DNA from: Planctomycetales bacterium
Lineage (GTDB): Bacteria > 4484-113 > JAFGCY01
NCBI GenBank assembly: GCA_022646745.1
Contig: CP060262.1
Span: 2,760,001 to 2,792,000, forward strand
Reading direction: 5' to 3'
Length of the DNA stretch: 32,000 nt
The translations under genes and the position numbers were made by a program. The notes beneath the pieces were generated by a model, which saw only the letters and a list, made by a program, of their open reading frames with translations, ran no database searches and was not told the DNA's origin. Of the stretch, positions 6,382 to 31,316 are shown piece by piece (the first letter of the stretch is position 1; every line of letters begins with the position of its first letter).

Positions 6382-6507
6382 CTGGATGTTGGTTGGTGAT
6401 ACACAAATCGAATTATTGGCACGGGACACTTCTTCCCGTGCTTCTGACATTCCAACTTCTCCCTCACTTTCACGAACAAATTCCATCCCCTTGGAGGCAT
6501 TCTGCAC

Positions 6508-7233: not shown

Positions 7234-7253
7234 GAGCAATTCGACTTCAACTG

Positions 7254-7290
7254 CGCCGCAGGGACCGCTGTGTCCTGCGGCGCTGTGCTT
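7254..7290 (+). terminator. Terminator-like hairpin after the spsF-like gene
   Basis: gcgccgcagggac / gtcctgcggcgc forms a ~12-bp stem with one bulge and a 5-nt loop, followed by tgtgctttctc. The U-tract is weak. Confidence 0.45.
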
Positions 7291-7332
7291 TCTCGTGGGA
7301 TAAGTGCGCGGGTAATGGGATACTAGGAACTG

Positions 7333-15054: not shown

Positions 15055-15080
15055 GCCGGAACTCCAATTCCGAAATGAAA

Positions 15081-15106
15081 GGCCACCCTGCGGGGTGGCC
15101 TTTTTT
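15081..15106 (+). terminator. Rho-independent terminator closing the HtrA-like operon
   Basis: ggccaccc-tgcg-gggtggcc is a perfect 8-bp stem followed by tttttt. It lies 26 nt after the stop. Confidence 0.85.
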
Positions 15107-16828: not shown

Positions 16829-17356
16829 CTAGAAGCCGAAGTCGTCCCGCGAGAACAGGCTCCAGAACGGGATCTGCTCCTTCTCGAAGGCCTCGTCAGC
16901 GCCCTGTTTGCGGTTCAGCACCGCCATGCAGCCGATGATGTTGAAGCCTTCCTCGCGCATGCTGGTCAGCATCTCGATCACCTGACCACCGGTGGTCACC
17001 ACGTCCTCGATGATCAGCAGGCGGTCAGTCTTCTCGAAGCTGCCTTCAACCTGGGCTGCGGTACCGTATTCCTTGGCGGCCTTGCGGATGAACACGCAGG
17101 GAATGTCCGTATGCATGGAGAGGGCCGTCACCATCGGGATGCCGCCGAGCTCGACGCCGGCCAGGCGGTGGGTGTCAGCCGGGACCAGCCGTGACATGTG
17201 GTGCGCCACGCTGTGCATGATGGCAGGCTGTCCCTCGAAGCGGTACTTGTCGAAGTACCAGCGGCTCTTCTGGCCGCTGCGCAGAGTGAATTCGCCCTCC
17301 AGAAGAGCGATTTTCTTCATCTCCTCGATCAGTTCCGCGCGTGATAGATACTGCAT
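16829..17356 (-). CDS. pyrE: Orotate phosphoribosyltransferase
   Basis: 175 aa. PRPP-binding motif LLIIEDVVTTGGQ. FTLRSGQKSRWYFD matches the PyrE N-terminal motif. SD GGAGGG 5 nt upstream. Confidence 0.9.
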   Translation of the reverse strand: MQYLSRAELIEEMKKIALLEGEFTLRSGQKSRWYFDKYRFEGQPAIMHSVAHHMSRLVPADTHRLAGVELGGIPMVTALSMHTDIPCVFIRKAAKEYGTAAQVEGSFEKTDRLLIIEDVVTTGGQVIEMLTSMREEGFNIIGCMAVLNRKQGADEAFEKEQIPFWSLFSRDDFGF

Positions 17357-18594: not shown

Positions 18595-20042
18595 GCCGGC
18601 GCCTGCTTGCAGTGCTGCTCGGCCTGGCCTGCCTGCTTGGCGGGCGTGCTTCGTTCGCGCAGGAGGCGGACTGGATCCGCTTGCCGGACACAATACCCGA
18701 TATACCGCGCAATGAGCGCATGGCCGTGCTCAACCCGGATCCTGTCAACACCTCATGGGCTGAGCCGGGACACCATCCGCTCGGCATCCACCTTGACAAC
18801 TATGAGCTGACGCGCCAGCAGGTGGAGGTGGCACGCGAGACCGGCTGCCGGCTGGTGCGCCTCAGCATCCCGATGGAGGCCTTCCAGGGCGAGGCTGACG
18901 AGGACTGGGCGATGCTCGACCAGGTTGTCAGCCGGCTCAGCCGCGACGGCTTCGAGGTGCTGCCGGTGCTGACAGCAGTCAGTGCCAGCCGGGACTTCTA
19001 CACCGACTTCTGCCGCCAGATTGCCGAGCGCTATGGCGCGACCTTTGACAACTACCAGATCCTTGACGACATCAACTTCAAGATCGGCATCCAGAGCAAG
19101 GACTACATCGAGCTGCTGAAGTACAGCCGCGAGGCGATCCGCACGGTCGACCCGGATGCACGCATCGTCTGCGCCGGCATCCGCGGCTCCGACCTGACCT
19201 TCCTGCAGATGCTGGAGGACGGGGGCGGGATGGACAGCATCGACGTGCTGGCCTTCAACCTGTTCCCGCCGGCGGATGGCATCGAGCACATCTCGCGCCG
19301 CACCCGCTCGCAGCATTCACTGCTCTACATGCAGGAGATCATGGAGTGGTGCCACGCGCGCGGCAAGCCGGTCTGGGTCACCTCGCTCGGCTTCAGCACC
19401 AGCTACGACATCACCGACATCGGCGTCGACCAGGTGCAGCAGGCCAGCGCCTACGCGCGAGCCGTGCTGTTCCTTGGCTGGCTCGGGGTGGAGCGCATCA
19501 TCATCGCAGCCATCCAGGACAGCGATGCCAGCATGCTGCGCCCGGCACAGTGCTGCGGCCTGATTGACGGCATGGGCAACTACAAGGCCAGCTACTTCGC
19601 GCTGCGCACATTGAACCAGACCATCCAGAATGGCTACCAGGTGCTGCCGGACTTCCGCTACAGCGTGCAGATCTTCGAGCAGCCCGAGGCCTATGACGTG
19701 CTGATGTCGCAGGAATTCTCCAGCGAGCTGGACATCAACCCGATCCAGTCCTTCCGCGTCTATCCGGACCCGCGCGACCTGTTCGGCTTCTGGTTCTACA
19801 TGCCGGAGGAACAGCAGTACCGCCTGATATATTGGATCAGCTCCGATGCAGTGTTCGCCCGCAAGCTGTCGCTGACCATCAAGCCGCGAGTGCTGGAACC
19901 CAACCTGCGCTACCAGTTGCTTGATGTGGGGACGGCCCCGGTGGAAGATGAGGGAGCGCGTAATTTCCTGAGGATGCAGTTCCTTCCATTGAGCTCGATT
20001 CCGTCCGTCCTGCAGTTCGAGGTGAATGAAAATGGCCGCTAG
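18591..20042 (+). CDS. Secreted TIM-barrel glycoside-hydrolase-like protein (clan GH-A-like; function uncertain)
   Basis: 483 aa. Signal peptide MSRRLLAVLLGLACLLGGRASFA/QE. The alternating strand/helix pattern and blocks such as VRLSIPMEAF, YQILDDINF and KPVWVTSLGFS resemble beta4/beta7 regions of GH5/GH39-type barrels. Embedded between two GT4 genes with overlapping stops and starts. Confidence 0.5.
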   Translation: MSRRLLAVLLGLACLLGGRASFAQEADWIRLPDTIPDIPRNERMAVLNPDPVNTSWAEPGHHPLGIHLDNYELTRQQVEVARETGCRLVRLSIPMEAFQGEADEDWAMLDQVVSRLSRDGFEVLPVLTAVSASRDFYTDFCRQIAERYGATFDNYQILDDINFKIGIQSKDYIELLKYSREAIRTVDPDARIVCAGIRGSDLTFLQMLEDGGGMDSIDVLAFNLFPPADGIEHISRRTRSQHSLLYMQEIMEWCHARGKPVWVTSLGFSTSYDITDIGVDQVQQASAYARAVLFLGWLGVERIIIAAIQDSDASMLRPAQCCGLIDGMGNYKASYFALRTLNQTIQNGYQVLPDFRYSVQIFEQPEAYDVLMSQEFSSELDINPIQSFRVYPDPRDLFGFWFYMPEEQQYRLIYWISSDAVFARKLSLTIKPRVLEPNLRYQLLDVGTAPVEDEGARNFLRMQFLPLSSIPSVLQFEVNENGR

Positions 20043-21135
20043 GCCCCGCATTGCGCTGGTGCATGACTGGGTCACGACCTTCGGCGGAGCCGAACGCTGC
20101 CTGATCCTGCTGCACCAGATGTTCCCGGAAGCCCCGATCTTCACACTGGTGCATGACCGCTCCACCTCCCCGCCGGAGCTGGACAATGCCACCATCATCA
20201 CCTCGCCGCTGCAGCGCCTGCCCGGTGCCACGCGCAACTGGCAGCGCTACCTGCCCCTGATGCCATACAGCATCGAGCAGCTGGACCTGCGCGGCTACGA
20301 CCTCGTGATCTCATCCAGCCATGCCGTTGCCAAGGGTGTGCTGACCCACAGCGGCCAGCGCCACCTGTGCTACTGCTACACCCCGATGCGCTACGTCTGG
20401 GACCTCTACCAGACCTATCTCGAGCATACCCGGCTCAGCCCGCTGGCGGGCAAGGCCTTCCGCTGGAGCGCGCACTACCTGCGGATGTGGGACCTGCAGA
20501 GTGCGCAGCGCGTTGACAAGTTCATCGCGATCTCCGGCACGATCCAGCAGCGCATCCGCCGCATCTACGGCCGCGAGGCCCCGGTGGTGTTCCCGCCTGT
20601 TGACACCGACTACTTCGTGCCGGACATGCACGGCCAGCGCGACTATTACCTCGCGGTCAGCCGCTTCGTGCCCTACAAGCGCCTGGACCTCGTGATCGAG
20701 ACATTCAACAACCGCCAGGAGAAGCTGCTGGTGGTTGGCGACGGCCCGCTCGGAGGCCGCATGCGCAGGATGGCGAAGCGCAATGTCGAGTTCATCGGCG
20801 CGGTCAGTGACGAGGAACTGCGTGTGCTGTACCAGAACTGCCGCGCACTTGTGTTCCCCGCCGAGGAGGACTTCGGCATCATCCCGGTGGAGGCCCAGGC
20901 CTGCGGCCGCCCGGTGGTGGCGCTTGGCAAGGGTGGCACGGCGGAGACCGTGGTGGACGGCGTGACCGGTGTGCTGTTCCCGGAGCAGACCCCGCAGGCG
21001 CTGGACGGCGCAATTGACGCACTCGAGCGCGGCAGCTTCGACAGCGCGCGCATCCGCGAGCATGCCCAGCGCTTCGACAAGAAGGTGTTCGTTGCCAAGA
21101 TGCAGGCCGCCGCGCGCTACCTGCTGGAAAGCTGA
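20026..21135 (+). CDS. Glycosyltransferase family 4 (GT-B, group 1)
   Basis: 369 aa. RIALVHDWVTTFGGAERCL at the N-terminus. EX7E motif EEDFGIIPVEAQACGRPVVA. Overlaps the preceding stop by 17 nt (alternative ATG at 20032). Confidence 0.85.
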   Translation: MKMAARPRIALVHDWVTTFGGAERCLILLHQMFPEAPIFTLVHDRSTSPPELDNATIITSPLQRLPGATRNWQRYLPLMPYSIEQLDLRGYDLVISSSHAVAKGVLTHSGQRHLCYCYTPMRYVWDLYQTYLEHTRLSPLAGKAFRWSAHYLRMWDLQSAQRVDKFIAISGTIQQRIRRIYGREAPVVFPPVDTDYFVPDMHGQRDYYLAVSRFVPYKRLDLVIETFNNRQEKLLVVGDGPLGGRMRRMAKRNVEFIGAVSDEELRVLYQNCRALVFPAEEDFGIIPVEAQACGRPVVALGKGGTAETVVDGVTGVLFPEQTPQALDGAIDALERGSFDSARIREHAQRFDKKVFVAKMQAAARYLLES

Positions 21136-21151
21136 AGCGGCGCTCCCGCTC

Positions 21152-21160
21152 TGTTACAAT
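21152..21160 (+). promoter_or_regulatory. Extended -10 promoter candidate for 21198..21890
   Basis: TGtTACAAT. The leader contains the 7-bp hairpin gtcccgc-tgcg-gcgggac (21169-21186) and then SD GGAGG. Confidence 0.35.
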
Positions 21161-21197
21161 CGGCTCAGGTCCCGCTGCGGCGGGACGGGGAGGAGCG

Positions 21198-21890
21198 ATG
21201 CACCGACTGCCAGCAATCTGCCTGCTTGTGATGCTTGCCTGCACTGTCATGGCGCATGCCGCGGCTGACTACGACGGCTGGTGGCCGGATCCCTACGAAG
21301 TGGCGGATGAGCAGCAGCAGGCCGAGCGCAACCAGCGCAACGATGAACTGACACCAGAGCAGCGCCGGGCCCTGCATGAGTACCTGGCCAAGCATGCCGA
21401 TCGTGATGGCGATGGCGATTTCGATGCCGACGACATCCAGCAGTTCGAGCGCACCGGTGAGCTGAGCATGCTGCGCGACGGTGACCTGATGGGCGGCTAC
21501 TTCGGCAGTGGTGATGAGTTCATCCGCGACGGGGTGGAGCATGAGGTGAACGGCGGGCGCTACCTGCGTGATTCGATGAACCATGAGCAGCGCCGGGATA
21601 GCGATAGGGCAGGGGATGGTGAGCGCGTTGCCAAGCTGGACCTGTTCGGCATGCGCGGCTTCCTCAGTGACGAGGGCACTTACTCGAACCCGAACGAGGA
21701 TGCCGCCACCAGCCAGTTCATCCACTGGCGCCTGCAGGTGGCCCAGCTGCTGCCGGGCTATATCCCGCCGGCGGACTACACCGAGCTGCTGCAGAAGATT
21801 GAATCCGAAGGGCAGGGCAGTGACAAGCCGAAGGATGAACCGAAGCACCAGCCACGGAAGGATGACAACGACCCGACCGTGTGGTGGTAG
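21198..21890 (+). CDS. Secreted acidic protein with an EF-hand-like calcium-binding loop
   Basis: 230 aa. Signal peptide MHRLPAICLLVMLACTVMAHA/AA. DRDGDGDFDADD fits the 12-residue DxDxDG EF-hand loop. Good GC3 bias and SD. Preferred over the overlapping antisense ORF 21165..21920. Confidence 0.65.
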   Translation: MHRLPAICLLVMLACTVMAHAAADYDGWWPDPYEVADEQQQAERNQRNDELTPEQRRALHEYLAKHADRDGDGDFDADDIQQFERTGELSMLRDGDLMGGYFGSGDEFIRDGVEHEVNGGRYLRDSMNHEQRRDSDRAGDGERVAKLDLFGMRGFLSDEGTYSNPNEDAATSQFIHWRLQVAQLLPGYIPPADYTELLQKIESEGQGSDKPKDEPKHQPRKDDNDPTVWW

Positions 21891-22033
21891 GAGGTCCGGC
21901 GCGAGCCGGGCTCTGGCCACAGGCCTGGGGCCTACTCAAGTTCTGTCTCAATCTCAATGGCACCGAACAAAGGCCTGCGCCCAGAGCCCTGCGGCCTTAT
22001 ACGCCTGTGCCCAGCTCCCAGTGGCCAGAAGAA

Positions 22034-22130
22034 AGCAATGAGCAATGAAGACGGAGCAATGAGCGTGAAAGGCAGCGAGATGAGCTCCGCCTGAGTTTGA
22101 CTCATTGCTCCCTACTCATTCTTCATTACT
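22034..22130. repeat. Inverted-repeat element 1 (GAGCAATGA / TCATTGCTC arms)
   Basis: ggagcaatgag (22053-22063) pairs perfectly with ctcattgctcc (22101-22111). Further aatga/tcatt segments (22044-48 with 22116-20; 22037-42 with 22122-27) extend the hairpin across symmetric internal loops. Confidence 0.8.
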
Positions 22131-22145
22131 CCCATGTTAATTTAT

Positions 22146-22173
22146 TTGACTGATTTTCCCTACAAAGGATAAT
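22146..22173 (+). promoter_or_regulatory. Near-consensus sigma70 promoter with no associated ORF
   Basis: TTGACT (22146-22151), 16-nt spacer, GATAAT (22168-22173), in the only AT-rich patch of the island. No start codon or SD lies in the expected position downstream. Confidence 0.5.
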
Positions 22174-22179
22174 ACCTAA

Positions 22180-22600
22180 CATCAAGCGCTTGATTGGTGC
22201 TGTGCCGGGCAACCAGCATGGCAGGCCGGATGGACTACGACGCCCGGCCGGGGATTCCCAGTCCCGGAGGCACTGCGAAGCTGTGCCATTGGAGCTGCGG
22301 CGCAAGCCGCACAACCGAGGCCAAGCTGTTAGCTTGGCTGGAAGGCGATGAGCAATGACGAATGAGCAATGAGCCTGACAAGGATCGGAGATGACCTCGA
22401 CCGCCAGAATTTTCATTGCTCACTCAACAAAACTCATTGCTCGACGGAGTGCCGGTTTATCCGGCGTGGCCATGTGGCCTTCGGGCCACACTCCGGATCC
22501 TTTGGAGGTCTGGCGGCAAGCCAGGCGCGGGGGTCTAGCGCAAGCTCGGCTCGGAAGTCTGACGCGAGTCAGGCACGTAATCCAGGCTGCAAGCCTGGCA
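22180..22600 (+). ncRNA. Candidate structured non-coding transcript (family not recognised)
   Basis: Downstream of the orphan promoter. It contains at least seven perfect stems, several capped by GCAA, GCGA or UUCG tetraloops, and a junction-like module at 22446-22494. There is no credible ORF. The 3' end is undefined. Confidence 0.25.
22349..22443. repeat. Inverted-repeat element 2 (GAGCAATGA / TCATTGCTC arms)
   Basis: tgagcaatga (22363-22372) pairs with tcattgctca (22413-22422). gagcaatga (22350-22358) pairs with tcattgctc (22434-22442). The loop is 40 nt. Confidence 0.8.
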
Positions 22601-22604
22601 ATCA

Positions 22605-22743
22605 GGCAATGAGGATTGAGCAATCAGCAATGATCCTCGGGGGTGACGAGAAGGAAAAACACAAGCTATCTGAGCAGTGCAAACACTGAATGAGATCCGA
22701 ATTGCAGCATGAACTCATAGCTCACTCTTCATCACTCATTGCT
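22605..22743. repeat. Inverted-repeat element 3 (degenerate GAGCAATGA / TCATTGCTC arms)
   Basis: gcaatgag (22606-22613) pairs with ctcattgc (22735-22742). agcaatga (22626-22633) pairs with tcatagct (22715-22722) at 7 of 8 positions. The ~80-nt loop is longer than in elements 1 and 2. Confidence 0.65.
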
Positions 22744-22805
22744 AACTGCCCACTGCCCACTGACTACGGACCACTGTCCCCCCGCGCCAGCGGGCAACTC
22801 TGCTC

Positions 22806-22849
22806 ATCCCCCATCCCCCATCCCCCATCCCCGGATTTCCCCCTCCCCC
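22806..22849. repeat. C5-tract array / heptamer tandem repeat (G-quadruplex motif on the minus strand)
   Basis: (ATCCCCC)x3 plus ATCCCC at 22806-22832, then CCCCC-T-CCCCC at 22839-22849. That is six C-runs of 4-5 nt, 33-76 nt upstream of the pyrH ATG. Confidence 0.9.
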
Positions 22850-22869
22850 GACCGACTTTCCACCAGTGC

Positions 22870-22875
22870 TATTAT
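22870..22875 (+). promoter_or_regulatory. -10 hexamer 6 nt upstream of the pyrH ATG (leaderless-type promoter candidate)
   Basis: TATTAT, then tccggc, then ATG (22882). No SD. Confidence 0.4.
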
Positions 22876-22881
22876 TCCGGC

Positions 22882-23610
22882 ATGCTGTACCGCAGGATCA
22901 TCCTCAAGATGTCGGGTGAAGCTCTCAAGGGCAACCTTGATTCCGGCATCGCGCCAGGTGAGCTGACCCATTACGCCGCCGAAGTGCGCAAGGTGCTGGA
23001 GACCGGCGCCCAGGTCGCGCTCGTGATCGGCGGTGGCAACATCATCCGCGGCGCGGAGATTGCTGAGAAGGGCATGGACCGCGCCAACGCTGACTACATG
23101 GGCATGCTGGGCACAGTGATCAACGCGATGGCTCTGCAGGATGTGCTGGAGCAGAGCGGGGTCTACACCCGCGTGATGTCAGCCATCCACATGGAGGCGG
23201 TGGCCGAGCCCTACATCCGCCGCCGCGCAATCCGCCACCTTGAGAAGGGCCGCGTCGTGATTTTCGCGGCCGGCACCGGCAACCCCTACTTCTCCACCGA
23301 TACCGCCGCCGCCCTGCGCGCCTGTGAGATCGGGGCGGACGTGTTCATCAAGGGCACCCGCGTGGACGGCATCTACACCGCCGATCCGGAGCTGGACCCG
23401 ACGGCCCGGCGTTACAGCGAACTGAGCTTCCAGGAAGCGATCGAGAAGAACCTCAAGGTGCTCGACGGCCCGGCCTTCGTGATGTGCCGTGACAACAACC
23501 TGCCGATCGTCGTCGCCGACGTGACAACCCCCGGCCGGCTGGTCGAGGTGGTGCAGGGGCATGGCATCTGCACCACGGTGCGCAATGTCGAGCGCAGCAG
23601 CATGGCCTGA
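22882..23610 (+). CDS. pyrH: UMP kinase
   Basis: Start moved to Met65 of the track [20 protein letters not shown]...[13 protein letters not shown]...[16 protein letters not shown]...[20 protein letters not shown] are canonical PyrH blocks. The 64 upstream codons of the track ORF cover the repeat island and are low-complexity. Confidence 0.92.
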
Positions 23611-23615
23611 TCACC

Positions 23616-23621
23616 GATAAT
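23616..23621 (+). promoter_or_regulatory. -10 hexamer 6 nt upstream of the pyrK ATG (leaderless-type promoter candidate)
   Basis: GATAAT, then agacat, then ATG (23628). No SD. Confidence 0.4.
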
Positions 23622-23627
23622 AGACAT

Positions 23628-24404
23628 ATGCACTTCGAGCGCTGCACGGTAACCGCCAACGAGGAATACGGCCCGGGACACTGGGTCATCTCACTGCGCT
23701 CCGGGCAGGACCTGTCCGGCATCCAGGCCGGTGAATTCCTCAACCTGCAGTGCGACCCGGAGGACAGCTGGTCGCTGCTGCGCCCCCTGTCAATCCTCGG
23801 CGTGGACCTCGCTGCCAACACGATGCTGGTCTACTACAAGCACCTCGGCCGCATGAGCCGCGCGCTGTCCAGCGTGCAAGCCGGAGAAGCACTCAACGTG
23901 CTGTTCCCGCTCGGCGGCCGCTTCCCGGTTGACATGTCGCACCGGCGCATCGCCCTGATCGGCGGTGGTGTCGGCCTGGCCCCGCTGCTGTTCCTCGCGA
24001 AGCAGCTCGAGGATAGCGGGATGGAAATCGATGCCTACTTCGGCGGAGCCTCGAAACCGGACCTCGTGCTGCGCATGCTCGAACCCTACAACTGCAACAT
24101 GATCCTGTCCACTGACGACGGCAGCCATGGCTACCGTGGCAACTGCGTGGACTGCTACTTTGACAGCGGCCGCAGCCACGATGCGATCTACACCTGCGGC
24201 CCGAACCCGATGATGAATGCGCTCAAGGCGCGGCTGGATGGCAGCGTGCCCTGCTGGGCCAGCCTTGAGGAATACATGGCCTGCGGTGTCGGTGCCTGCC
24301 TCGGTTGCGCCACGCATATTGACAACGCCGACAAGCGTGCCAACGAGACCGTCTGCAAGAAGGGCCCGGTGTTCGACCTCTCGAAGGTGGTGTTTCACCA
24401 CTGA
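23628..24404 (+). CDS. pyrK: Dihydroorotate dehydrogenase (type 1B) electron-transfer subunit-like ferredoxin reductase
   Basis: 258 aa. LRPLSI (FAD-binding RPFSI-like), IGGGVGLAPL (NAD-binding), C-terminal 2Fe-2S cysteines MACGVGACLGCA...VCKKGPVF. Confidence 0.8.
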   Translation: MHFERCTVTANEEYGPGHWVISLRSGQDLSGIQAGEFLNLQCDPEDSWSLLRPLSILGVDLAANTMLVYYKHLGRMSRALSSVQAGEALNVLFPLGGRFPVDMSHRRIALIGGGVGLAPLLFLAKQLEDSGMEIDAYFGGASKPDLVLRMLEPYNCNMILSTDDGSHGYRGNCVDCYFDSGRSHDAIYTCGPNPMMNALKARLDGSVPCWASLEEYMACGVGACLGCATHIDNADKRANETVCKKGPVFDLSKVVFHH

Positions 24405-24865
24405 TGCTTGAGCTGGATACAGGCAGCGCGGAAGCGACACAGCGCCTGGCCGGCCGCATCGGTGAGCTGGTGGCCGGGCCGCTGCTGATCCTGCTCGTCG
24501 GCGACTACGGCACCGGCAAGACCACCTTCGTGCAGGGCCTGGCCCGCGGGCTCGGTTTCGAGGGCGTGGTGCGCAGCCCGAGCTACAACATCATGAAGAA
24601 GTATGAGGGCGGCCGCCTGCCACTGGTGCATGCCGACCTGTACCGTACCGGCAGCCAGGCTGACATCGAGGAGCTCGGCCTGATCGAGGAGACGGGCGAG
24701 GGCATCCTCGCGGTGGAATGGCCGAAGACGGAGCTACCGCAGCAGATGGGCATGCCCTGGCTGCGCATCGAATTCCGGCAGGGCAATGGCGATGCCGACC
24801 GCCGCACCCTGCTGCTGAGCTGGGAGAAAGAGGTTGAGACCGTGATCGGGGGGATGCTCGGATGA
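24404..24865 (+). CDS. tsaE: tRNA t6A37 biosynthesis ATPase TsaE
   Basis: 153 aa. Walker A GDYGTGKTTF. SPSYNIMKKY...LVHADLYR matches the TsaE signature (SPTF...Y...HxDxYR). The start overlaps the pyrK stop (TGATG). Confidence 0.85.
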   Translation: MLELDTGSAEATQRLAGRIGELVAGPLLILLVGDYGTGKTTFVQGLARGLGFEGVVRSPSYNIMKKYEGGRLPLVHADLYRTGSQADIEELGLIEETGEGILAVEWPKTELPQQMGMPWLRIEFRQGNGDADRRTLLLSWEKEVETVIGGMLG

Positions 24866-25485
24866 TCCTGTGCGTTGACAGTTCCGGCATCGGGGTGCAG
24901 TTCAGCATCGCTGAACCGGACGGGCATGAACTGGCAACGGTGCTCGCCGCACCGCGCTCTGAGCTGTCACGGGACATGAGCGCGATGTTTGCCCAGGTGC
25001 TGGACGCGGCCGGGATGCAGGATGGCACAGCCATCAAGCGGATCGTGGCCGGGCAGGGGCCGGGCACCTTCATCGGCACCCGCGTGGCCCTCAGTTTTGC
25101 CAATGGCCTGGCCGCAGCCGGCGGATTGCCGGTGGCCTCGTTTGACAGCCTGGCGGCCCTGCGCCTGACCGTCGGAGATCCGAGCGCGATTTCCGTGCGT
25201 GATGCGCGCCGCGGGCAGTTCTACGTGAATGATGGCGGGGAGAGCCGCATCATCGATGAGGAACAGCTCGTTGCCATCGTGGCGGAAACTACGTACATCG
25301 TCAGTGATGCCGTACCGCCCGAGCTGCATGCCGATCGTTCGCTGGCACATATGCAGGACCTGCTGGCCTTCTGCACGGGTCGGCTGGGCTGGCTGGAGCG
25401 CACGGCACCTAAGGCCATGATCGCCACCGCCGAGCCCTGCGAAGACGGCTATGCCGAGCCGGTTTACCTGCGCGATTACCTCTGA
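24862..25485 (+). CDS. tsaB: tRNA t6A37 biosynthesis protein TsaB
   Basis: 207 aa. MILCVDSSG N-terminus and GQGPGTFIGTRVALSFANGLA match TsaB (GPGSFTGLRIG). ATGA overlap with tsaE. Confidence 0.8.
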   Translation: MILCVDSSGIGVQFSIAEPDGHELATVLAAPRSELSRDMSAMFAQVLDAAGMQDGTAIKRIVAGQGPGTFIGTRVALSFANGLAAAGGLPVASFDSLAALRLTVGDPSAISVRDARRGQFYVNDGGESRIIDEEQLVAIVAETTYIVSDAVPPELHADRSLAHMQDLLAFCTGRLGWLERTAPKAMIATAEPCEDGYAEPVYLRDYL

Positions 25486-25518
25486 TTGCACACCGATTCA
25501 CCACATCGCGGCGGGCAG

Positions 25519-25524
25519 TAGAAT
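25519..25524 (+). promoter_or_regulatory. -10 hexamer 6 nt upstream of the pyrF ATG (leaderless-type promoter candidate)
   Basis: TAGAAT, then taacac, then ATG (25531). A possible -35 TTCACC lies 16 nt upstream. No SD. Confidence 0.4.
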
Positions 25525-25530
25525 TAACAC

Positions 25531-26454
25531 ATGGCTGCTCTCAACTTCGCTGACAGACTGAGTGAGCGGATCCGCGCGAACAACTCACGCGTGGTGGTGG
25601 GCCTTGATCCCAATCCGGCCAAGTTCCCCGTCGAACTGAAGCAGGCCTGGGAGCAGGCATCGGACAGGGCAGCCCGCGCTGAAGTGGTACGTGAATTCTG
25701 CGATACCGTAATCCGTGCCAGCCAGTCCGTGGCCTGCGCCTTCAAGCCGCAGATTGCCTTCTTCGAGCAGTTCGGCAGCGCCGGCATCGCCGTGCTGGAG
25801 GAACTGCTGAGGGCCAACCCCGACAGCATCTTCATCATGGACTGCAAGCGCGGCGACATCGGCTCCACAGTCGAAGCCTATACAAAGGCATACTTCGAGC
25901 TGCCCGGTGAGCCGGCTGCCCCAATGTCCTGTGCTGCGGTGACGCATAACCCCTACCTCGGGCTGGACAGCGTGCTGCCGTACTTCCCGTACCTCGCCGA
26001 GGACCGCGGGATGTTCATCCTCTGCAAGACCTCCAACCCCAGTGCACTGGACTTCCAGGACCGGCTGGTGGATGACCGCTCGCTGTACCTGATCGTCGCA
26101 GAGCAGATTGAGCTGTGGGGCGAGGAGTTCATCGGCGAGTGCGGTTTCAGCTCAATGGGGCTGGTGGCCGGGGCGACGCATCCCTACGACGGTGAGGCGA
26201 TCCGCAATGCTGCGCCGCATGCGCTGTTCCTCGTGCCGGGTATCGGCACCCAGGGCGGCAAGGTGGATGACGCGCGGGCCTTCACTGATGAGAATGGCAA
26301 CGGCGCGGTGTTCAACTTCAGCCGCAGCGTGATCTACCCGCAGCTGCACGGCCCCTTTGCTGAGGACCAGGGTGGCAGCGGTGATTTCGCGAGCATGGTT
26401 AAGCAGGCCGCCGACTTCTACCGTAAGGCGCTCAACTCCTCGCTGGGCTTCTAG
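25531..26454 (+). CDS. pyrF: Orotidine-5'-phosphate decarboxylase, type 2 (long form)
   Basis: 307 aa. VVVGLDPN, AFKPQIAFFEQFG and IFIMDCKRGDIGSTVEAY are type-2 PyrF blocks. Confidence 0.85.
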   Translation: MAALNFADRLSERIRANNSRVVVGLDPNPAKFPVELKQAWEQASDRAARAEVVREFCDTVIRASQSVACAFKPQIAFFEQFGSAGIAVLEELLRANPDSIFIMDCKRGDIGSTVEAYTKAYFELPGEPAAPMSCAAVTHNPYLGLDSVLPYFPYLAEDRGMFILCKTSNPSALDFQDRLVDDRSLYLIVAEQIELWGEEFIGECGFSSMGLVAGATHPYDGEAIRNAAPHALFLVPGIGTQGGKVDDARAFTDENGNGAVFNFSRSVIYPQLHGPFAEDQGGSGDFASMVKQAADFYRKALNSSLGF

Positions 26455-26551
26455 GTCTGACTCATCCAATTCTCCGTGACTGCACGCCTACGCATGTGCG
26501 CGCAAATTCGCATCTACAAAATGGGAACTGAGTGAGGTCGGATGGGCTTGA

Positions 26552-27676
26552 TTACAGGCCGAGCAGGCTGCCGGCCTTGTCCAGGCCACTGGAGACATAG
26601 GCACGGATCTTGACCGGGCCGGTGAAGGTGCCGGCGTAGTAGCTCAGCTGCACCTGGCCGCTGGCGTCCGTGACCGGGTCGATCACCTGGATCTGGCCGT
26701 TCTGCTCATCGAGGAACTCCACGCGGATCTCAACGCCGCTGAGCGGCAGGCCGTAGAGGTCGGTGACCTCGGCCACCAGGTTCAGCTCGGACACGCCATC
26801 CGCCGGGACCACGGCACCCTTGCGGGCCAGGCCGGCGCTGAACTGGTTGTTGTAGAACAGCTCGATGTGCGCCCCGGTGCTCTTGACCAGGGTGAAGTTG
26901 AAGCTCTCGGTCAGGCCCGTGCTGGGCTCGATCAGGGCCACGCTCAGCACACCGGGCTGGCGGCCGCTCATCACGTCCACGCTGAAGTTGCCCTGCGCAT
27001 CTGTGGCCTTCTGCTCAATGATCAGCTGGCCCTCGCCGGCCTGGATCACGGGCAGCAGGGGCACGCCCGGTGCCGGGCTGCCATCCGCATGGGTCAGGCG
27101 CGCGCTGAGGGTGGAGATGCTGCTGCCGTCCGCGGCCAGCTGGTCGGGGAAGGCGTTCATCTGCAGGCGGTAGTAGTTCGCCGCGCTGGACTGGCGGTCC
27201 AGGTAGAGCTGGTACTCCTCAGGCGTGACGAGCTGCAGGTTCAGGTAGGTCACGGGAGCGATCGGGATCTCGATCTCGCTGCTCAGCTCGCGCTGGGCGA
27301 CATGGAAGCTGATCCTGGCTGAGGTCGGCAGCATACCGCTGCGGTAGTCGAAGCTGGCCAGTCCGGCTTCATCTGTGACAGCCGTGGTGGAGGCGAGGAA
27401 GCCACCGCCGTCGGTCACACGGGCTTCAACAGTCTCACCGGCCAGCGGCTTGCCGTCATTGACCAGCATCACCTGGATCTCGCTTTCGCTGCGGCCGTCG
27501 TTGGGGAGTGCTTCGGGATAGGCGTGGGTGAGGATCGCGGTGCCCTCAACCTGCTCGTGGTTCGGGAAGAAGATATTGCCGATCAGGGCCAGATCGAAAA
27601 GAGCAGAAGCCGGCGCCACCATGACCAGCATGATGACTGCTGCAATTCCTGCTGTCTTCCACCCTGTCGTTTTCAT
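26552..27676 (-). CDS. Membrane-anchored or secreted protein with three Big_1 (invasin/intimin-type) Ig-like repeats
   Basis: 374 aa with an N-terminal hydrophobic anchor AGIAAVIMLVMVAPASA. Three ~95-aa repeats carry the pattern P..L.ADG.S.S.......D..G.P..G..V.......G........TD..G.A. Confidence 0.7.
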   Translation of the reverse strand: MKTTGWKTAGIAAVIMLVMVAPASALFDLALIGNIFFPNHEQVEGTAILTHAYPEALPNDGRSESEIQVMLVNDGKPLAGETVEARVTDGGGFLASTTAVTDEAGLASFDYRSGMLPTSARISFHVAQRELSSEIEIPIAPVTYLNLQLVTPEEYQLYLDRQSSAANYYRLQMNAFPDQLAADGSSISTLSARLTHADGSPAPGVPLLPVIQAGEGQLIIEQKATDAQGNFSVDVMSGRQPGVLSVALIEPSTGLTESFNFTLVKSTGAHIELFYNNQFSAGLARKGAVVPADGVSELNLVAEVTDLYGLPLSGVEIRVEFLDEQNGQIQVIDPVTDASGQVQLSYYAGTFTGPVKIRAYVSSGLDKAGSLLGL

Positions 27677-27870
27677 ATCTCGCTAACCTACACTAACTTA
27701 TTCGCCGGTGGGACACTCTGATTTTAAACCCTTTATAACTATAGATACCTCATTTCCCGCAAAAATTCCGGCGGGCATGGCATTCCACATCGAATCTCCA
27801 CAAATGAGAGTGATAGGCATTTCGCATACACGCGCGTGATAAGCTTCAGGCTGATCTCCCGGAGTCAGTC

Positions 27871-28326
27871 ATGGAAGCCTATTCCGCCGTCAAACTGCTG
27901 CATGTCACCTGCGCGCTCATAAGCATCAGCGGCTTCATCTACCGCTTCGTGCTGCTCAAGCACCGCGTGGACCTGAAGGCCAAGTTCACCACGAAGGTGC
28001 TGCCGCACATCATTGACACCGTGCTTTTGGGCAGTGCGGTCGGGCTGATCATCATGGGGCCCTTCGACCTGCTGAGTGAGCACTGGCTGCTGGCTAAGAT
28101 CGTGCTATTGGTGGCATACATCGGCTTCGGCATGAAGGCGCTCAAGCCCAAAATTGACGACGAAGTACGGCGCAAGGCCTTCAACGCTGCCTGCATCTGC
28201 ATCTTCCTGATCCTCTGCCTGGCCTTCGAGCACCTGTTCCGTGTCAACAAGGGCGACCTGCTTTCCAACGGGGCGCAGAAAGCCACGGTGGTTGAAGAGT
28301 ACGACCACAGCAAGGGCAAGGAGTAG
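27871..28326 (+). CDS. SirB-family small membrane protein
   Basis: 151 aa with 4 predicted TM helices. KLLHVTCALISISGFIYRF and VLPHIIDTVLLGSAV resemble SirB1/SirB2-family motifs. SD GGAG lies 7 nt upstream. Confidence 0.6.
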   Translation: MEAYSAVKLLHVTCALISISGFIYRFVLLKHRVDLKAKFTTKVLPHIIDTVLLGSAVGLIIMGPFDLLSEHWLLAKIVLLVAYIGFGMKALKPKIDDEVRRKAFNAACICIFLILCLAFEHLFRVNKGDLLSNGAQKATVVEEYDHSKGKE

Positions 28327-28331
28327 GGGAC

Positions 28332-29489
28332 TCAGCCGTCCGCGAGCAGTTCGCAGACCCGCTGGATTTCTTCCTCAGTGTTGTAGATATGCGGCGAGAG
28401 GCGCATGCCGAAGCGCGGACGGTTGTCGTGGTGCACAGCGGCCTGCTGCAGCTTCGCTGACATTGCCTCGTGATTTCGCAGGCCGATTGCAATCGTGCCG
28501 CCTTCCACATCCGCGCCCTGCGGCGTGTTGACAACATGCCCATTGGCGAGTGCCGCCTCACGCAGCATGCCCTTCAGGGCAAGGTTGTGGCTGCGGATCG
28601 TTTCCATCCCGATTGCCTGTGTGCAGCGGATTGCGGCACTGGCGATCATCGCCGGCTGCGGGACAGGTGTGCCGCCCATGAAGCGCCAGGCGTTTGCGCT
28701 GTAGCGAAAGTCGTGGATATCCATTTCAAAGGGGTTCTCATGGCTCCACCAGCCGACGTCCACGGGCTGGCACTGCTGGAGCATCTCCTCCGAGGCCCAG
28801 AGGAAGCTCGCCCCCTGGCCGCCGCAGAGCCACTTGACGCTGCAGCCGAGCACGAAGTCAGCATCCCAGGCGGGGATGTCAATCGGCACCACACCGACTG
28901 ACTGCGCGATGTCAACGACGGAAATGATCCCGCGCTCGCGGCAGACCCGGCAGATTTCGGCAACGGGGTTCAGGTAGCTGTTGTTGCTGCAGGAGTGCAT
29001 GATCAGCGCCAGTTTCACGTCGCTCGTGAGTGCGGCATCCCAGCGCTCGAGGCTGGTCACGCCATCCTCGTCAGCGAGGAAGCGCGGCTGCCAGCCGAGA
29101 TGATGGGCCACCTGCTGGGCGGCATAGCTCATCGAGGGGAAGTCCATTTCACTGAGCAGCACCAAGCTGCGCCCATTGCCGGGCAGGGCCGGCATCAGCT
29201 TGCATAGCCCGCTCGACAGGTTGGCCTGCATGCAGTAACTGGCGGCATTGCCACCGAGCAGGCCGCTGAGCGCCTTGTGGAAGCCCTCGATCTCACGCAG
29301 CCACAGCGGCCAGGAATTGCAGCCGCCTTCGGCCCAGTGCCCGATGAACAGGCGGCTGGCGCGGCGCGCCCGCTCGGAGAGGCAACCCACGGCGTGGTTC
29401 AGCAGGTAGGTACCGGCCGGCACGTCGAACACTTCGTTGCCAACATGGCGCTTGTGCGTGGCCGGGGACTGGGTCGCTGGATCGTTCAC
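28332..29489 (-). CDS. kynU: Kynureninase-like class-V-fold PLP hydrolase
   Basis: DADFVLGCSVKWLCGGQGASFLW (PLP-Lys block, compare CxYKYLNxGPG), GWWSHENPFEMD, RFMGGTPVPQP and LSPHIYNTEEEI match kynureninase blocks. The start is uncertain. The track ATG at 29570 adds 27 codons that consist of two perfect palindromes. I place the start at in-frame GTG 29487-29489, 6 nt downstream of TATAAT (29496-29501, minus strand). Confidence 0.65.
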   Translation of the reverse strand: MNDPATQSPATHKRHVGNEVFDVPAGTYLLNHAVGCLSERARRASRLFIGHWAEGGCNSWPLWLREIEGFHKALSGLLGGNAASYCMQANLSSGLCKLMPALPGNGRSLVLLSEMDFPSMSYAAQQVAHHLGWQPRFLADEDGVTSLERWDAALTSDVKLALIMHSCSNNSYLNPVAEICRVCRERGIISVVDIAQSVGVVPIDIPAWDADFVLGCSVKWLCGGQGASFLWASEEMLQQCQPVDVGWWSHENPFEMDIHDFRYSANAWRFMGGTPVPQPAMIASAAIRCTQAIGMETIRSHNLALKGMLREAALANGHVVNTPQGADVEGGTIAIGLRNHEAMSAKLQQAAVHHDNRPRFGMRLSPHIYNTEEEIQRVCELLADG

Positions 29490-29495
29490 AGGGCG

Positions 29496-29501
29496 ATTAT
29501 A
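29496..29501 (-). promoter_or_regulatory. -10 hexamer 6 nt upstream of the candidate GTG start of the kynU-like gene
   Basis: The minus strand reads TATAAT, then cgccct, then GTG. Same geometry as at pyrH, pyrK, pyrF and the GT4 gene. Confidence 0.3.
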
Positions 29502-29507
29502 CGGTGT

Positions 29508-29688
29508 GTAGCTCCAAGAGCTACAGGGCCCTGTTGCTCTCAGAGCAACACTCCGCCCGGCTAGCACCATAGGTCCGATGGAGGCCAGGCAGTTTGCCTG
29601 GCAGACGCCAAGCTTACAGCTTGGCCTCCGACTGAACAGCTTCGCAGTGCCTCCGACTGCCGAAACCGGAAACCCGCAACCTGAAACC
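29508..29688. repeat. Cluster of REP/BIME-like perfect palindromes, direct repeats and a heptamer array
   Basis: gtagctc-caa-gagctac (29508-24). tgttgctc-tca-gagcaaca (29532-50). ccaggca-gtt-tgcctgg (29585-601). ccaagct-tac-agcttgg (29608-24). gcctccgactg occurs twice (29624-34 and 29649-59). (NGAAACC)x4 at 29661-88. Confidence 0.85.
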
Positions 29689-29713
29689 TGTTGTGCGACT
29701 TGCGCCGCGCCTC

Positions 29714-31102
29714 CTATATCAGCTCGAACTCGCTGGTGAAGTGGCGCAGCACCGGGGTCTCCTTCACGAAGCGCACGCCGCGGATACTTTCGTGGTCAGC
29801 CTTCATACGGATCAGCGTATTGGCAACGAACTCAAGCTGGGTGTAGCTGTAGGTGCGGTGCGGTATGGCGAGGCGCACGAGGTCCAGTCCTTCGAAGCGG
29901 TCCTGTTTCGTCACCGCATCGCGTCCGCGCAGCACGCTGCCGATCTCAACCGAGCGCACACCGCCTTCGAGGTACAGCGCGAGGCTGAGGGCCTGGGCCG
30001 GGAACTGCTCGCGCGGCAGATGCGGGCAGAACTGTGCCGCGTCCACATACACCGCATGCCCGCCGGGAGGCCAGGTCACGCTGATGCCGGCCTCGCGCAG
30101 CAGCACCGAGAGGTGCGCCACCTGGCCGGTGCGGTAGGCGAGGTAGTCCGGGCTGCAGCATTCCTGCAGGCCCTGGGCCAGCGCGTCCATGTCGCGCCCG
30201 CTCATGCCGCCGTAGGTGGAGAAGCCGTCGAACAGGATCTCGTACATGCGCAGTTGCTCATATAGCTCGTGGCTGCGCACCGCGATGAAGCCACCCATGT
30301 TGACAAGCCCGTCCTTCTTGGCGCTCATCCACATGCCGTCAGCCTGGGCCATGATCTCGCGCAGGATCGCGCCGATGCTCCAGTTGGAGAAGCCCTGCTC
30401 ACGCTGCTGGATGAACCAGGCGTTCTCGATCACGCGCGCGCTGTCAATCAGGAAGGGCTTTTCGAACTGCCGGCAGATCTCTCCGACGCGCCGTACATTC
30501 TCCAGGCTGGCAGGCTGGCCGCCGCCGCTGTTGCAGGTCAGGGTCATGCACACCAGCGGGATCTTGTCGCCATGCTCGCGCAGGTAGCTTTCCAGTTTGG
30601 CGGTGTCCATGTTGCCCTTGAAGGGATGGTCGGACTGCAGGTCGTAGATCCTGTCGTGCACCAGGTTGACATCAATCGCCTGCTGGTACTGCACGTGCGC
30701 GGCGGTGGTGTCAAAATGGATGTTGTTTGGGACATGGTCGCCGGGCTTGAGGAAGTGCGTCATCAGCACGAGCTCGGCTGAGCGGCCCTGGTGTGTTGGC
30801 AGCACATGCTCGAAGCCGAAGATCTCCTCGATGGAATTGCGCAGGCGCCTGAAGCTCAGGCTGCCGGCGTAGGCCTCGTCGCCGCGCATCAGCGCGGCCC
30901 ATTGGTTGTGGCTCATCGCGCCGGTGCCGCTGTCGGTCAGCAGGTCGATGAACACGTCGTCACTGGCCAGGTTGAACAGGTTGTACTTCGCCGTCTCCAG
31001 GCGGCGACGGCGTTCCTGCGCGCTGATCTGGCGAATCGGCACGACGCTCTTGACGTAGAAGGGTTCGGGTTGCAGGTAGTCCCATGCGTTGTCATTTGTC
31101 AT
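29714..31102 (-). CDS. tnaA: Beta-eliminating lyase, tryptophanase (tryptophan indole-lyase) type
   Basis: 462 aa, collinear with TnaA/TPL. DVFIDLLTDSGTGAMS, GDEAYAGS, PTHQGRSAE, PLP-Lys block MSAKKDGLVNMGG, GGHAVYVD and FPAQAL are all present. The positions that distinguish TnaA from tyrosine phenol-lyase read HFDTT (Asp, as in TnaA) and LRHFT (His, as in TnaA). Confidence 0.85.
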   Translation of the reverse strand: MTNDNAWDYLQPEPFYVKSVVPIRQISAQERRRRLETAKYNLFNLASDDVFIDLLTDSGTGAMSHNQWAALMRGDEAYAGSLSFRRLRNSIEEIFGFEHVLPTHQGRSAELVLMTHFLKPGDHVPNNIHFDTTAAHVQYQQAIDVNLVHDRIYDLQSDHPFKGNMDTAKLESYLREHGDKIPLVCMTLTCNSGGGQPASLENVRRVGEICRQFEKPFLIDSARVIENAWFIQQREQGFSNWSIGAILREIMAQADGMWMSAKKDGLVNMGGFIAVRSHELYEQLRMYEILFDGFSTYGGMSGRDMDALAQGLQECCSPDYLAYRTGQVAHLSVLLREAGISVTWPPGGHAVYVDAAQFCPHLPREQFPAQALSLALYLEGGVRSVEIGSVLRGRDAVTKQDRFEGLDLVRLAIPHRTYSYTQLEFVANTLIRMKADHESIRGVRFVKETPVLRHFTSEFELI

Positions 31103-31146
31103 TTACTACTCCGGATATTACATCTTAGAGATATCGGATATTTGAC

Positions 31147-31198
31147 GTAGGGACGGGGTAATACCCCGTCCCGGGAGGCGGTATTACCGCCTCCCTAC
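31147..31198. repeat. Two abutting 23-nt perfect palindromes
   Basis: gggacggggt-aat-accccgtccc (31150-72) is immediately followed by gggaggcggt-att-accgcctccc (31173-95). They are flanked by gta/tac. Confidence 0.9.
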
Positions 31199-31229
31199 TT
31201 CAATGGATCGTTGTCAGTTTCCGGAATGC

Positions 31230-31290
31230 CTGCATCCTGCCTGCGGCGGGATGCAGCACCCCTGGTCAGTCCTGCTTCGCGGGACTGACC
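31230..31290. repeat. Two further intercistronic hairpins
   Basis: ctgcatcc/ggatgcag is an 8-bp stem (31230-56). ggtcagtcc/ggactgacc is a 9-bp stem (31264-90). They are followed by the direct repeat gcgcctgg x2 (31293-312). Confidence 0.8.
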
Positions 31291-31316
31291 TCCGCGCCTG
31301 GCTTGCGCCTGGCCTC

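Follow-up and report, generated by a model that had tools for sequence, protein, structure and literature searches.

The window examined here is a stretch of 32,000 nt from contig CP060262.1 (assembly GCA_022646745.1, Planctomycetales bacterium). Upstream of pyrH it contains a gap of 991 nt without open reading frames (ORFs), which runs from the TAG stop codon (21888-21890) of a gene for a hypothetical protein of 230 aa to the pyrH ATG at 22882. A first-pass annotation, made from the sequence alone, had proposed a novel non-coding RNA (ncRNA) in this gap, transcribed from an orphan near-consensus promoter in the only AT-rich patch of a gene-free interval of about 1 kb. Both the interval and the promoter match were found. 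A sigma-70-like TTGACT-16-GATAAT (10/12 consensus matches) is present at 22146-22173 on the + strand, as the sole such site in 21000-24000, and the G + C content drops to 0.465 at 22000-22199, compared with 0.60-0.69 around it; no other part of the gap is AT-rich.

The sequence after the promoter had been called highly structured and untranslatable. The + strand of the gap indeed folds at -393 kcal/mol (z = -5.7 against shuffles), though the - strand folds too (z = -6.4), since palindromic DNA behaves in this way. None of the short ORFs in the gap matches Pfam, and they are disrupted in the sister strain (locus L129) by indels of 25, 9, 7 and 1 nt; a 19-codon ORF inside the loop of the last of three large hairpins (H3) has lost its stop codon there. 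On the absence of Pfam matches and the broken reading frames, the gap was rejected as coding sequence. The annotation had recognised no known RNA family by eye, and the database searches agreed with this. Rfam gave 0 matches in the whole window at the gathering score and, for 21800-22950 in E-value mode (E ≤ 10), only noise, with no CsrB/Rsm, PyrR or riboswitch match; no tRNA or tmRNA was found. In 18 related loci, Rfam detected only an SRP RNA and a TPP riboswitch, both unrelated to the repeats described below. Three further candidates were dropped: CRISPR (spacers of constant length are absent), an IS200/IS605 omega-RNA or retron (neither partner gene nor Rfam match), and a C/D-box small RNA, as the weak matches to sR14 and sR17 (E = 0.08-5) stem from AUGA/CUGA inside heptamers.

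The annotation had missed the repeated-module makeup of this structured sequence. The gap is modular and consists of two repeat classes, three hairpins of about 100-165 nt with heptamer arms (H1-H3) and at least eight GGAG units. In the latter, which are 22-24 nt long, a 7-bp stem capped by a GNRA-type tetraloop follows an unpaired GGAG(G) head. The parts of the gap are given below, with matches to R1, the covariance model of the GGAG unit, and results of Tandem Repeats Finder (TRF).

21888-21911, + strand: first GGAG unit, joined directly to the TAG stop of the upstream gene, TAG/GAGGTCCGGC-GCGA-GCCGGGC (R1 match 21890-21911, 33.7 bits); as RNA, from 21890, GGAG-GUCCGGC-GCGA-GCCGGGC.
21905-21992, + strand: long imperfect palindrome in the 3' flank of the upstream gene (inverted repeat with 22-nt arms, 86% complementary).
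22031-22131, unstranded: H1 hairpin, arms (AGCAATG)n/(CATTGCT)n, degenerate, followed by a T-rich tract (minimum free energy -37.3 kcal/mol; homologous to L100 5205-5306).
22146-22173, + strand: promoter candidate TTGACT-16-GATAAT (consensus match; conserved in L129).
22181-22194, + strand: 5'-proximal hairpin ATCAA-GCGC-TTGAT at the predicted transcript start (identical in L129).
22198-22223, + strand: GCAA-tetraloop hairpin with a stem of 10-11 bp (window and L129 differ by two compensatory double changes; a perfect 11 bp in L129).
22224-22249, + strand: GGCCGG...CCGGCC hairpin (unchanged between window and L129).
22267-22340, + strand: three GGAG-type units, GGAGGCACTGCGAAGCTGTGCC; GGAGCTGCGGC-GCAA-GCCGCAC; GAGGCCAAGCT-GTTA-AGCTTGGCT (R1 match 22291-22312, 30.8 bits); as RNA, from 22291, GGAG-CUGCGGC-GCAA-GCCGCAC.
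22341-22442, unstranded: H2, the second heptamer-arm hairpin, with a partly conserved loop motif (GAGATGACCTC), 310 nt after H1 (repeat and TRF analysis).
22446-22490, + strand: two hairpins, GUGCCGG-UUUAU-CCGGCGU and GUGGCC-UUCG-GGCCAC (canonical cUUCGg loop at 22473-22490, on the + strand only).
22504-22598, + strand: head-to-tail GGAG array with units at 22504-22526, 22529-22550 and 22553-22574 and a CCAGGCU-GCA-AGCCUGG hairpin (R1 matches; period 24-25 nt). TRF gives period 24 and 2.3 copies, and there is 87.5% identity to L100 5646-5716.
22600-22765, unstranded: H3, the third heptamer-arm hairpin, with an A-rich loop of about 80 nt (inverted repeats and TRF).
22745-22832, + strand: more heptamer arrays, ACTGCCC x2.6 and CATCCCC x4 (TRF; short-read assemblies break here).
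22867-22884, + strand: pyrH extended -10 (TG-C-TATTAT) and ATG at leaderless distance (conserved in window, L129, L133 and L132).

The GGAG units were compared as a family. In an alignment of 22 units, several of which were picked because they pair, 94% of cells were paired; 33 cells were double-changed, compared with 8.7 +/- 3.1 in shuffles, and the covariation score was 0.71, compared with 0.27 in shuffles and at most 0.09 when the partner was slid. GNRA loops were present in 25 of 33 units, and a GGAGG head also in 25, the remaining heads being GGAGC, GGAAG, GGAAC, GGGGG or GGACG. The loops are GCAA, GUAA, GCGA or GCCA, and the GGA is located in the 5' flank or linker. These 33 units contain 24 G·U pairs against 5 A·C mismatches, indicating that the constraint acts on one strand. 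Within the gap, GNRA and UUCG loops occur on the + strand and the complementary loop types are essentially absent. Between window and L129, the predicted pairs of 22174-22345 show 4 double changes, 3 wobble changes and no broken pair; this count concerns two sequences only, and its consensus fold is biased towards kept pairing, but even so the hairpins are maintained. The covarying stems, the excess of G·U and the four compensatory changes near the promoter together show that the hairpins are selected on the sense strand.

The units are restricted in their distribution. When the gap was compared by BLAST with loci retrieved through the heptamer motif, contigs of UBP7 metagenome-assembled genomes (MAGs; HKST-UBA01 and HKST-UBA03) stood out, as they contain a heptamer hairpin and, at 87-97% identity, GGAG units. 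Of the 51 GGAGGYC sites in these loci, 21 start an in-register hairpin with at least 6/7 pairs (random positions: 4.7%). R1 found 38 matches in 91 kb of the lineage, all in intergenic arrays, at no fewer than 10 separate sites in 5 genomes. In 725 kb from 100 other genomes, matches below E = 1 occurred only in the MAG 'bacterium AC1.30', which has a head-to-tail array of about 10 units, mostly with a 24-nt period, seven of them above the R1 threshold. Identical 22-mers turn up in different genomes. A metagenome scan with GGAGGTCNNGCGCAAGCNNGGC returned at least 120 matches; among those listed, almost all were coding (E-V-x-R-K-L/H-G) and 1-2 were hairpin-like. No orthologous proteins were shared between the window and the sampled stretches of UBP7 and AC1.30, so the relationship with these genomes rests on the shared repeats.

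Two more GGAG arrays are present in the window, and both reuse units of the gap:

29570-29714, - strand: second array, beginning on the TAG stop of a beta-eliminating lyase gene, between two co-directional genes and without a promoter.
31150-31319, - strand: third array, TAG/GAGGCCAGGC-GCAA-GCCAGGC, GGAGGTCAGTCC...GGACTGACC, GGGTGCTGCATCC...GGATGCAGGC (R1 matches); its terminal pair of larger hairpins also ends the L038 array.

The units of 22267-22340 recur in the second of these (29714-29600, -) and in L025, L100 and L129. In the third (31150-31300, -) and in L038 (3340-3430, -), which are from two genomes, the same hairpin pair closes the array, GGAGGTCAGTCC...GGACTGAYC followed by GGGTGCTGCATCC...GGATGCAGSC. 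This suggests that GGAG arrays have a defined 3' end module.

The arrays follow rules of placement. At all 10 decidable sites the array was in sense orientation to the upstream gene, and at none antisense. Nine arrays start at most 50 nt from the upstream stop codon, and eight of these abut it. The start is TAG/GAGG in the window (21888; 29714, -; 31317, -), in L094 (1311; 6677, -), in L038 (3628, -) and in L129 (17584, -), and TGA/GGGAG in L094 (3019, -). Among 54 crude gene calls, a unit abutted the gene end at 6 of the 21 TAG stops, 1 of the 25 TGA stops and 0 of the 8 TAA stops; the gene at 21198-21890, skipped by the crude caller, is a seventh TAG case. In these 54 genes TAG is used almost as frequently as TGA (21 vs 25) despite a G + C content of about 63%, and it is nearly always followed by G. 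The linkers between units are often AAGGAGG, a perfect ribosome-binding site, and the genes of this lineage use GGAG-type ribosome-binding sites. Several arrays are located between co-directional genes or at convergent ends, without a promoter of their own, and a few in 5' or divergent regions (L100, L025). In L025, from a UBP7 MAG, a repeat-rich intergenic region of 1.3 kb (6390-7652) contains outward-directed GGAG arrays on both strands, together with several short tandem repeats of other kinds and a segment of about 140 nt that is present twice (6760-6900 and 7165-7300). The region between the lyase and aminotransferase genes is about 800 nt longer in L129 (16627-17584) than in the window (29570-29714). 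Within the extra DNA, an AT-rich ORF of 137 aa (16854-17267, -) has at its flanks a directly repeated copy of the promoter and 5' end of the aminotransferase gene, and a GGAG array lies beside it; the arrangement resembles a recent insertion at a site of repeats.

The closest described kind of element is the tagged repetitive extragenic palindrome (REP). Tagged REPs are palindromes of 20-40 bp that can form a stem-loop and have an unpaired GTAG/CGTC tetranucleotide as a tag at one end, such as SMAG of Stenotrophomonas, which form clusters of bacterial interspersed mosaic elements and are associated with REP-associated tyrosine transposases (RAYT/TnpA-REP) (PMC3733652, PMC3333891, PMC8266576). 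They lie directly 3' of ORFs, for which they often provide the TAG stop codon, and are probably transcribed (Di Nocera 2013, PMC3733652). The GGAG units resemble them in being GC-rich palindromes of about 22 nt with an unpaired tag at one end and several stem subfamilies, clustered at some loci. In the sequence sampled they lie between genes, mostly just 3' of ORFs with co-directional or convergent neighbours. As with tagged REPs, they can provide a TAG stop or adjoin one, and transcription of the units is probable. Unlike tagged REPs, they have a strictly sense orientation and GNRA-biased loops. No Y1 transposase gene was seen in the window, in which no systematic search for one was made.

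On balance we read the gap, with moderate confidence, as a lineage-specific and strain-variable accretion of two small dispersed repeat families, of which the GGAG-tagged elements are REP-like and transcribed within mRNA. Several observations weigh against this. The tag is GGAG(G), a look-alike of the Shine-Dalgarno (SD) sequence, and GTAG or CGTC was found in none of the 33 units; the arrays are head-to-tail with a period of 24-25 nt, instead of head-to-head or tail-to-tail dimers. As tag and arrangement thus differ from those of tagged REPs, the units are called REP-like and not REP, and membership of that family is not established. The unit census covers about 100 kb of the lineage rather than a whole genome. 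Simple accretion does not explain why 22443-22765 is three times more conserved between window and L129 than 4-fold sites (4.5-4.8% vs 15.5%). Finally, a promoter context recurs at three H hairpins and, in the gap, is followed by a hairpin at the predicted 5' end, which fits a genuine transcription unit.

The region upstream of pyrH is gained and lost rapidly. The sister strain L129 has a gap of 941 nt, with one 25-nt array unit fewer and further indels of 9, 7 and 1 nt. In L132 (GCA_024645305.1; PyrH 95% identical), the orthologous upstream gene (ending in ...DDPTVWW) is followed by only 35 nt to the pyrH ATG. L133 (PyrH 96% identical) has a different mosaic of similar parts, with GGAGGUCAGCU-GAAA-AGCUGAC units and a heptamer hairpin. 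A relative with a 73% identical PyrH has a different neighbour and synteny, a spacer of 107 nt and no units. Upstream of pyrH, the window, L129, L133 and L132 have only the last ~16 nt in common, GTGCTA(T/A)TATTCCGGC-ATG, an extended -10 placed at leaderless distance (in the window TG-C-TATTAT at 22867-22875, 6 nt before the ATG). This shows that pyrH has its own ancestral promoter and that the remaining ~950 nt were inserted recently and are fluid. The extended -10, TG-C-TA(T/A)TAT, was observed in four lineages (window 22867-22884, L132 169-186, L133 367-384, and L129), and pyrH appears, from this arrangement, to be leaderless. The annotation was therefore right that pyrH does not need the promoter at 22146. 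The proposed discrete, conserved ncRNA gene did not survive the comparison, as ~950 nt are absent from L132 and replaced by another mosaic in L133; nor is the region a single ncRNA locus, being built of dispersed modules that elsewhere lack a promoter and are present in 3' untranslated regions (3'UTRs) and intercistronic spacers.

Contigs from independent short-read assemblies of the organism and its relatives (L001, L002, L005 and L130-L133) end about 350-830 nt upstream of, or inside, pyrH. Those of the window's organism stop within the heptamer tract that precedes pyrH, as is typical where repeats are dispersed. Repeat mosaics of this sort will be systematically absent from MAGs.

Substitutions between window and L129, for which divergence at 4-fold sites is 15.5%, are spread unevenly over the gap. 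The part before H1 evolves fastest (24%), followed by 22181-22340 (13.6%), H2 (12.7%), the promoter patch (10%), H1 (8.9%), H3 (4.8%) and 22443-22599 (4.5%). The conserved stretch 22443-22765 includes the ~80-nt A-rich loop of H3, which has no paralogue in related loci; the similarity of this loop and of 22443-22503 to those loci was no better than that of shuffles.

This conservation next to pyrH fits a second reading, in which transcripts from a distal second promoter at 22146 form a structured, cis-regulatory 5' leader of about 700 nt for the pyrH-pyrK-tsaE-tsaB-pyrF operon. A scan of 20000-32000, which includes the interval from the upstream gene to pyrH, detected no canonical terminator (hairpin with U-tract), compared with 6.2 expected from shuffles for these 12 kb, and H2 and H3 lack U-tracts. 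At L020 an equivalent promoter after a hairpin drives a protein-coding gene, and at L100 the array is upstream of a + strand gene. However, pyrH keeps its conserved leaderless extended -10, the close relative L132 manages with a spacer of 35 nt, Rfam gave no PyrR site or riboswitch in either mode, and the presumed leader consists of generic repeats also present in 3'UTRs. We consider such a leader decidedly unlikely. Clear terminators are present elsewhere in the window (3944-3919, -; 15077-15104, +); the gene ends in 20000-32000 carry GGAG arrays or nothing.

The promoter match is by itself not significant, as shuffles contain 0.7 sites with 10/12 matches per 3 kb and one was observed. Its credibility comes from its context, namely conservation in the sister strain, the position after a hairpin and T-rich tract, and recurrence at L100 and L020. 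In L129 the -10 is identical and the -35 is TTGACG (5/6). In the window the candidate is located 3' of H1 and its T-rich tract. At L100, TTGACA-16-GACAAT (10/12) comes right after an H-type hairpin and is followed by an array of at least four GGAG units; at L020, TTGACC-17-GATAAT (10/12) also comes right after an H-type hairpin, 30 nt upstream of a protein-coding ATG. Further likely promoters in the window's organism share the form of TTGACT-16-GATAAT. Transcription would start at about 22180, which places the hairpin 22181-22194 at the predicted 5' end. The sequence after H1 is TGTTAATTTATTT, and that after its L100 homologue is TATTTTTTAATTT; with loops of 37-40 nt, both hairpins fall outside the definition used in the terminator scan. 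Against the promoter, the similarity between window and L100 ends where the hairpin arm ends, the remaining H copies have no such site, and the scan detected no terminator downstream. From sequence and context, a real promoter at 22146 is plausible, if somewhat short of probable.

Hairpins that carry promoters are known from the Correia/NEMIS-type miniature inverted-repeat transposable elements of Neisseria, inverted repeats of about 100-150 nt that fold as mRNA hairpins and can place outward-facing promoters beside genes. H hairpins with TTGAC(N)-16/17-GAyAAT behind them resemble these, but they have no visible target-site duplication or conserved termini, their arms are simple-sequence arrays, and no sign of transposition was seen.

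If the promoter is active, its product could be a stand-alone ncRNA that runs from 22146 to H2 (~260 nt) or beyond and titrates, through its exposed GGAG(G), a factor that binds GGA or SD sequences (30S, a CsrA-like or another protein), as a sponge of the CsrB/RsmZ kind. The 10/12 promoter conserved in the sister strain, the hairpin at the predicted 5' end with four compensatory and no broken changes after it, the frequent AAGGAGG linkers and the same order of parts at L100 (H hairpin, TTGACA-16-GACAAT, at least four GGAG units) are all in line with it. The units also share with CsrB, CsrC and RsmX-Y-Z a large number of GGA motifs among stem-loops and a variable number of repeats. Membership fails on two points, however: the GGA is located 5' of the stems and not in loops, and there is no covariance-model match to CsrB/Rsm in Rfam, even at E = 10. 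In addition, most GGAG arrays have no promoter of their own, and the units also occur within operons and where convergent genes end, beginning on stop codons; at the gap the scan detected no terminator after the array, the locus is absent from L132, and the promoter-proximal 90 nt have no paralogue, with no homology above shuffles in the related loci sampled. We therefore give a sponge RNA a low probability. What remains of the candidate ncRNA is a strand-specific constraint on the hairpins 3' of the promoter, not one conserved gene.

The heptamer class has a much wider distribution than the GGAG units. In the gap, TRF detected period-7 arrays at 22034, 22348, 22598, 22745 and 22805. The pattern GAGCAATGA-N5-GAGCAATGA was found at 119 or more loci in a collection of species-representative genomes, compared with a chance expectation, by our own estimate, of about 17. 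These loci span Chloroflexota, Cyanobacteria, Bacteroidota, Acidobacteriota, Nitrospirota, Chlorobi, Deinococcota, Planctomycetota, UBP7 and others. Variants that differ by one base (AGCGATG, AGCAGTG, AACAATG, AGTAATG and others) also occur in tandem arrays; many arrays are pure or consist of one-base variants, and in other genomes they reach more than 15 copies. About 33 of the loci listed have a forward array, a loop and a reverse-complement array, forming hairpins like H1-H3. Examples, within L010-L128, are L013 117-201, L017 5490-5619, L028 789-903, L099 3696-3781 and L102 1125-1200. Solitary arrays between co-directional genes were in sense orientation 26 times and antisense 8 times (crude gene calls). 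No Rfam family covers the heptamer arrays, and a literature search for the heptamer string returned no paper.

Heptanucleotide tandem repeats in bacteria include the cyanobacterial STRR. The repeats in the gap resemble these and the TAACTGA repeats in being tandem 7-nt units of variable copy number, intergenic, near gene starts or promoters and patchily distributed across phyla; the unit ends in TGA, so that stop codons occur in all three frames of one strand. They differ from TAACTGA in their sequence (AGCAATG and one-base variants) and in their arrangement, since TAACTGA is reported almost only as direct repeats, and here a forward array pairs with its reverse complement in a long hairpin. 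TAACTGA repeats have been described in Beggiatoaceae, Cyanobacteria and Bacteroidetes (PMC4679880), and heptamers in Nostoc affect the expression of recF and recO (bioRxiv 10.1101/2022.06.06.494920). The cross-phylum hairpins of AGCAATG heptamers appear to be undescribed, and the arrays and hairpins form a second case, after TAACTGA, of specific TGA-containing heptamers recurring in distant bacteria.

A further reading takes the repeats of the gap as selfish or slippage-generated DNA without function for the cell, with palindromes spread by a transposase or by recombination, heptamers by replication slippage, and a promoter match that is accidental in an AT-rich junction. Heptamers are the commonest long simple repeats in bacteria according to Mrazek 2007, as cited in PMC4679880. 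Close relatives are polymorphic for presence and copy number, the identical 22-mers are shared between genomes, 22181-22340 and H2 evolve at about the synonymous rate, and one promoter-like match is within chance expectation. The arms of the H hairpins add to this: with one double change and four breaks between window and L129, their covariation is unconvincing. On the other side are the strict sense orientation of the arrays, the preference for GNRA loops with the asymmetry of G·U and A·C, the compensatory changes in the units and in 22174-22345, and the conserved 22443-22765, which indicate selection on the transcribed strand, although a strand-specific mechanism of single-stranded DNA transposition could mimic part of this signal. 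Functionless selfish or slippage DNA has, in our view, a low probability. The annotation had named repeats without conservation, pure repeat junk, as what would speak against its ncRNA; half of this was found, since the region consists of repeats and has no syntenic conservation, but it is not unconstrained.

Under the reading that we favour, as REP-like elements within mRNA, the GGAG units would act as RNA, in the manner of REP elements, within 3'UTRs and the spacers between cistrons. Exonucleases would be stopped by the stable hairpins, which would also insulate one cistron from the next, and 30S subunits or another factor or protein may be held by the exposed GGAGG. H1, its T-rich tail and TTGACT-16-GATAAT would be a terminator-promoter junction brought in with the repeats, which may end the upstream unit and start a repeat-built RNA running towards pyrH. 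On this view, an RNA from 22146 would serve the pyrH operon as a second, long leader or would be a by-product, and would not come from a dedicated, conserved ncRNA gene.

STAB-SD of Bacillus thuringiensis cryIIIA is a 5' mRNA stabiliser whose SD sequence is not used for initiation and is proposed to bind 30S subunits and protect the mRNA. The GGAG units likewise carry an SD-type sequence, but STAB-SD is a single 5' element, whereas the units are tandem, coupled to hairpins and mostly 3' of genes. A bolder possibility, which we regard as unlikely, is that the arrays represent functional RNA modules of a new class, belonging to an uncultured lineage (UBP7-type MAGs and relatives). In such a module, tandem decoy SD sites would be held single-stranded between GNRA-capped hairpins, at stop codons or behind a promoter of their own (as at 22146). 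They would capture 30S subunits or a dedicated RNA-binding protein and thereby control the hand-over of ribosomes between cistrons, mRNA decay or, as free RNA, global translation.

In genomes such as these, long, highly structured intergenic regions without ORFs but with promoter-like boxes are repeat-built, and synteny is needed before they are counted as ncRNA genes. The GGAG units themselves, SD-tagged, abutting stop codons and arranged in sense-only arrays, appear to be undescribed. If our reading is true, a whole uncultured lineage possesses REP-like repeats set apart from all described super-families by their tag, their head-to-tail arrangement and their strict placement at stop codons on the sense strand, and this combination of tag, arrangement and placement would tie a family of extragenic repeats directly to translation.

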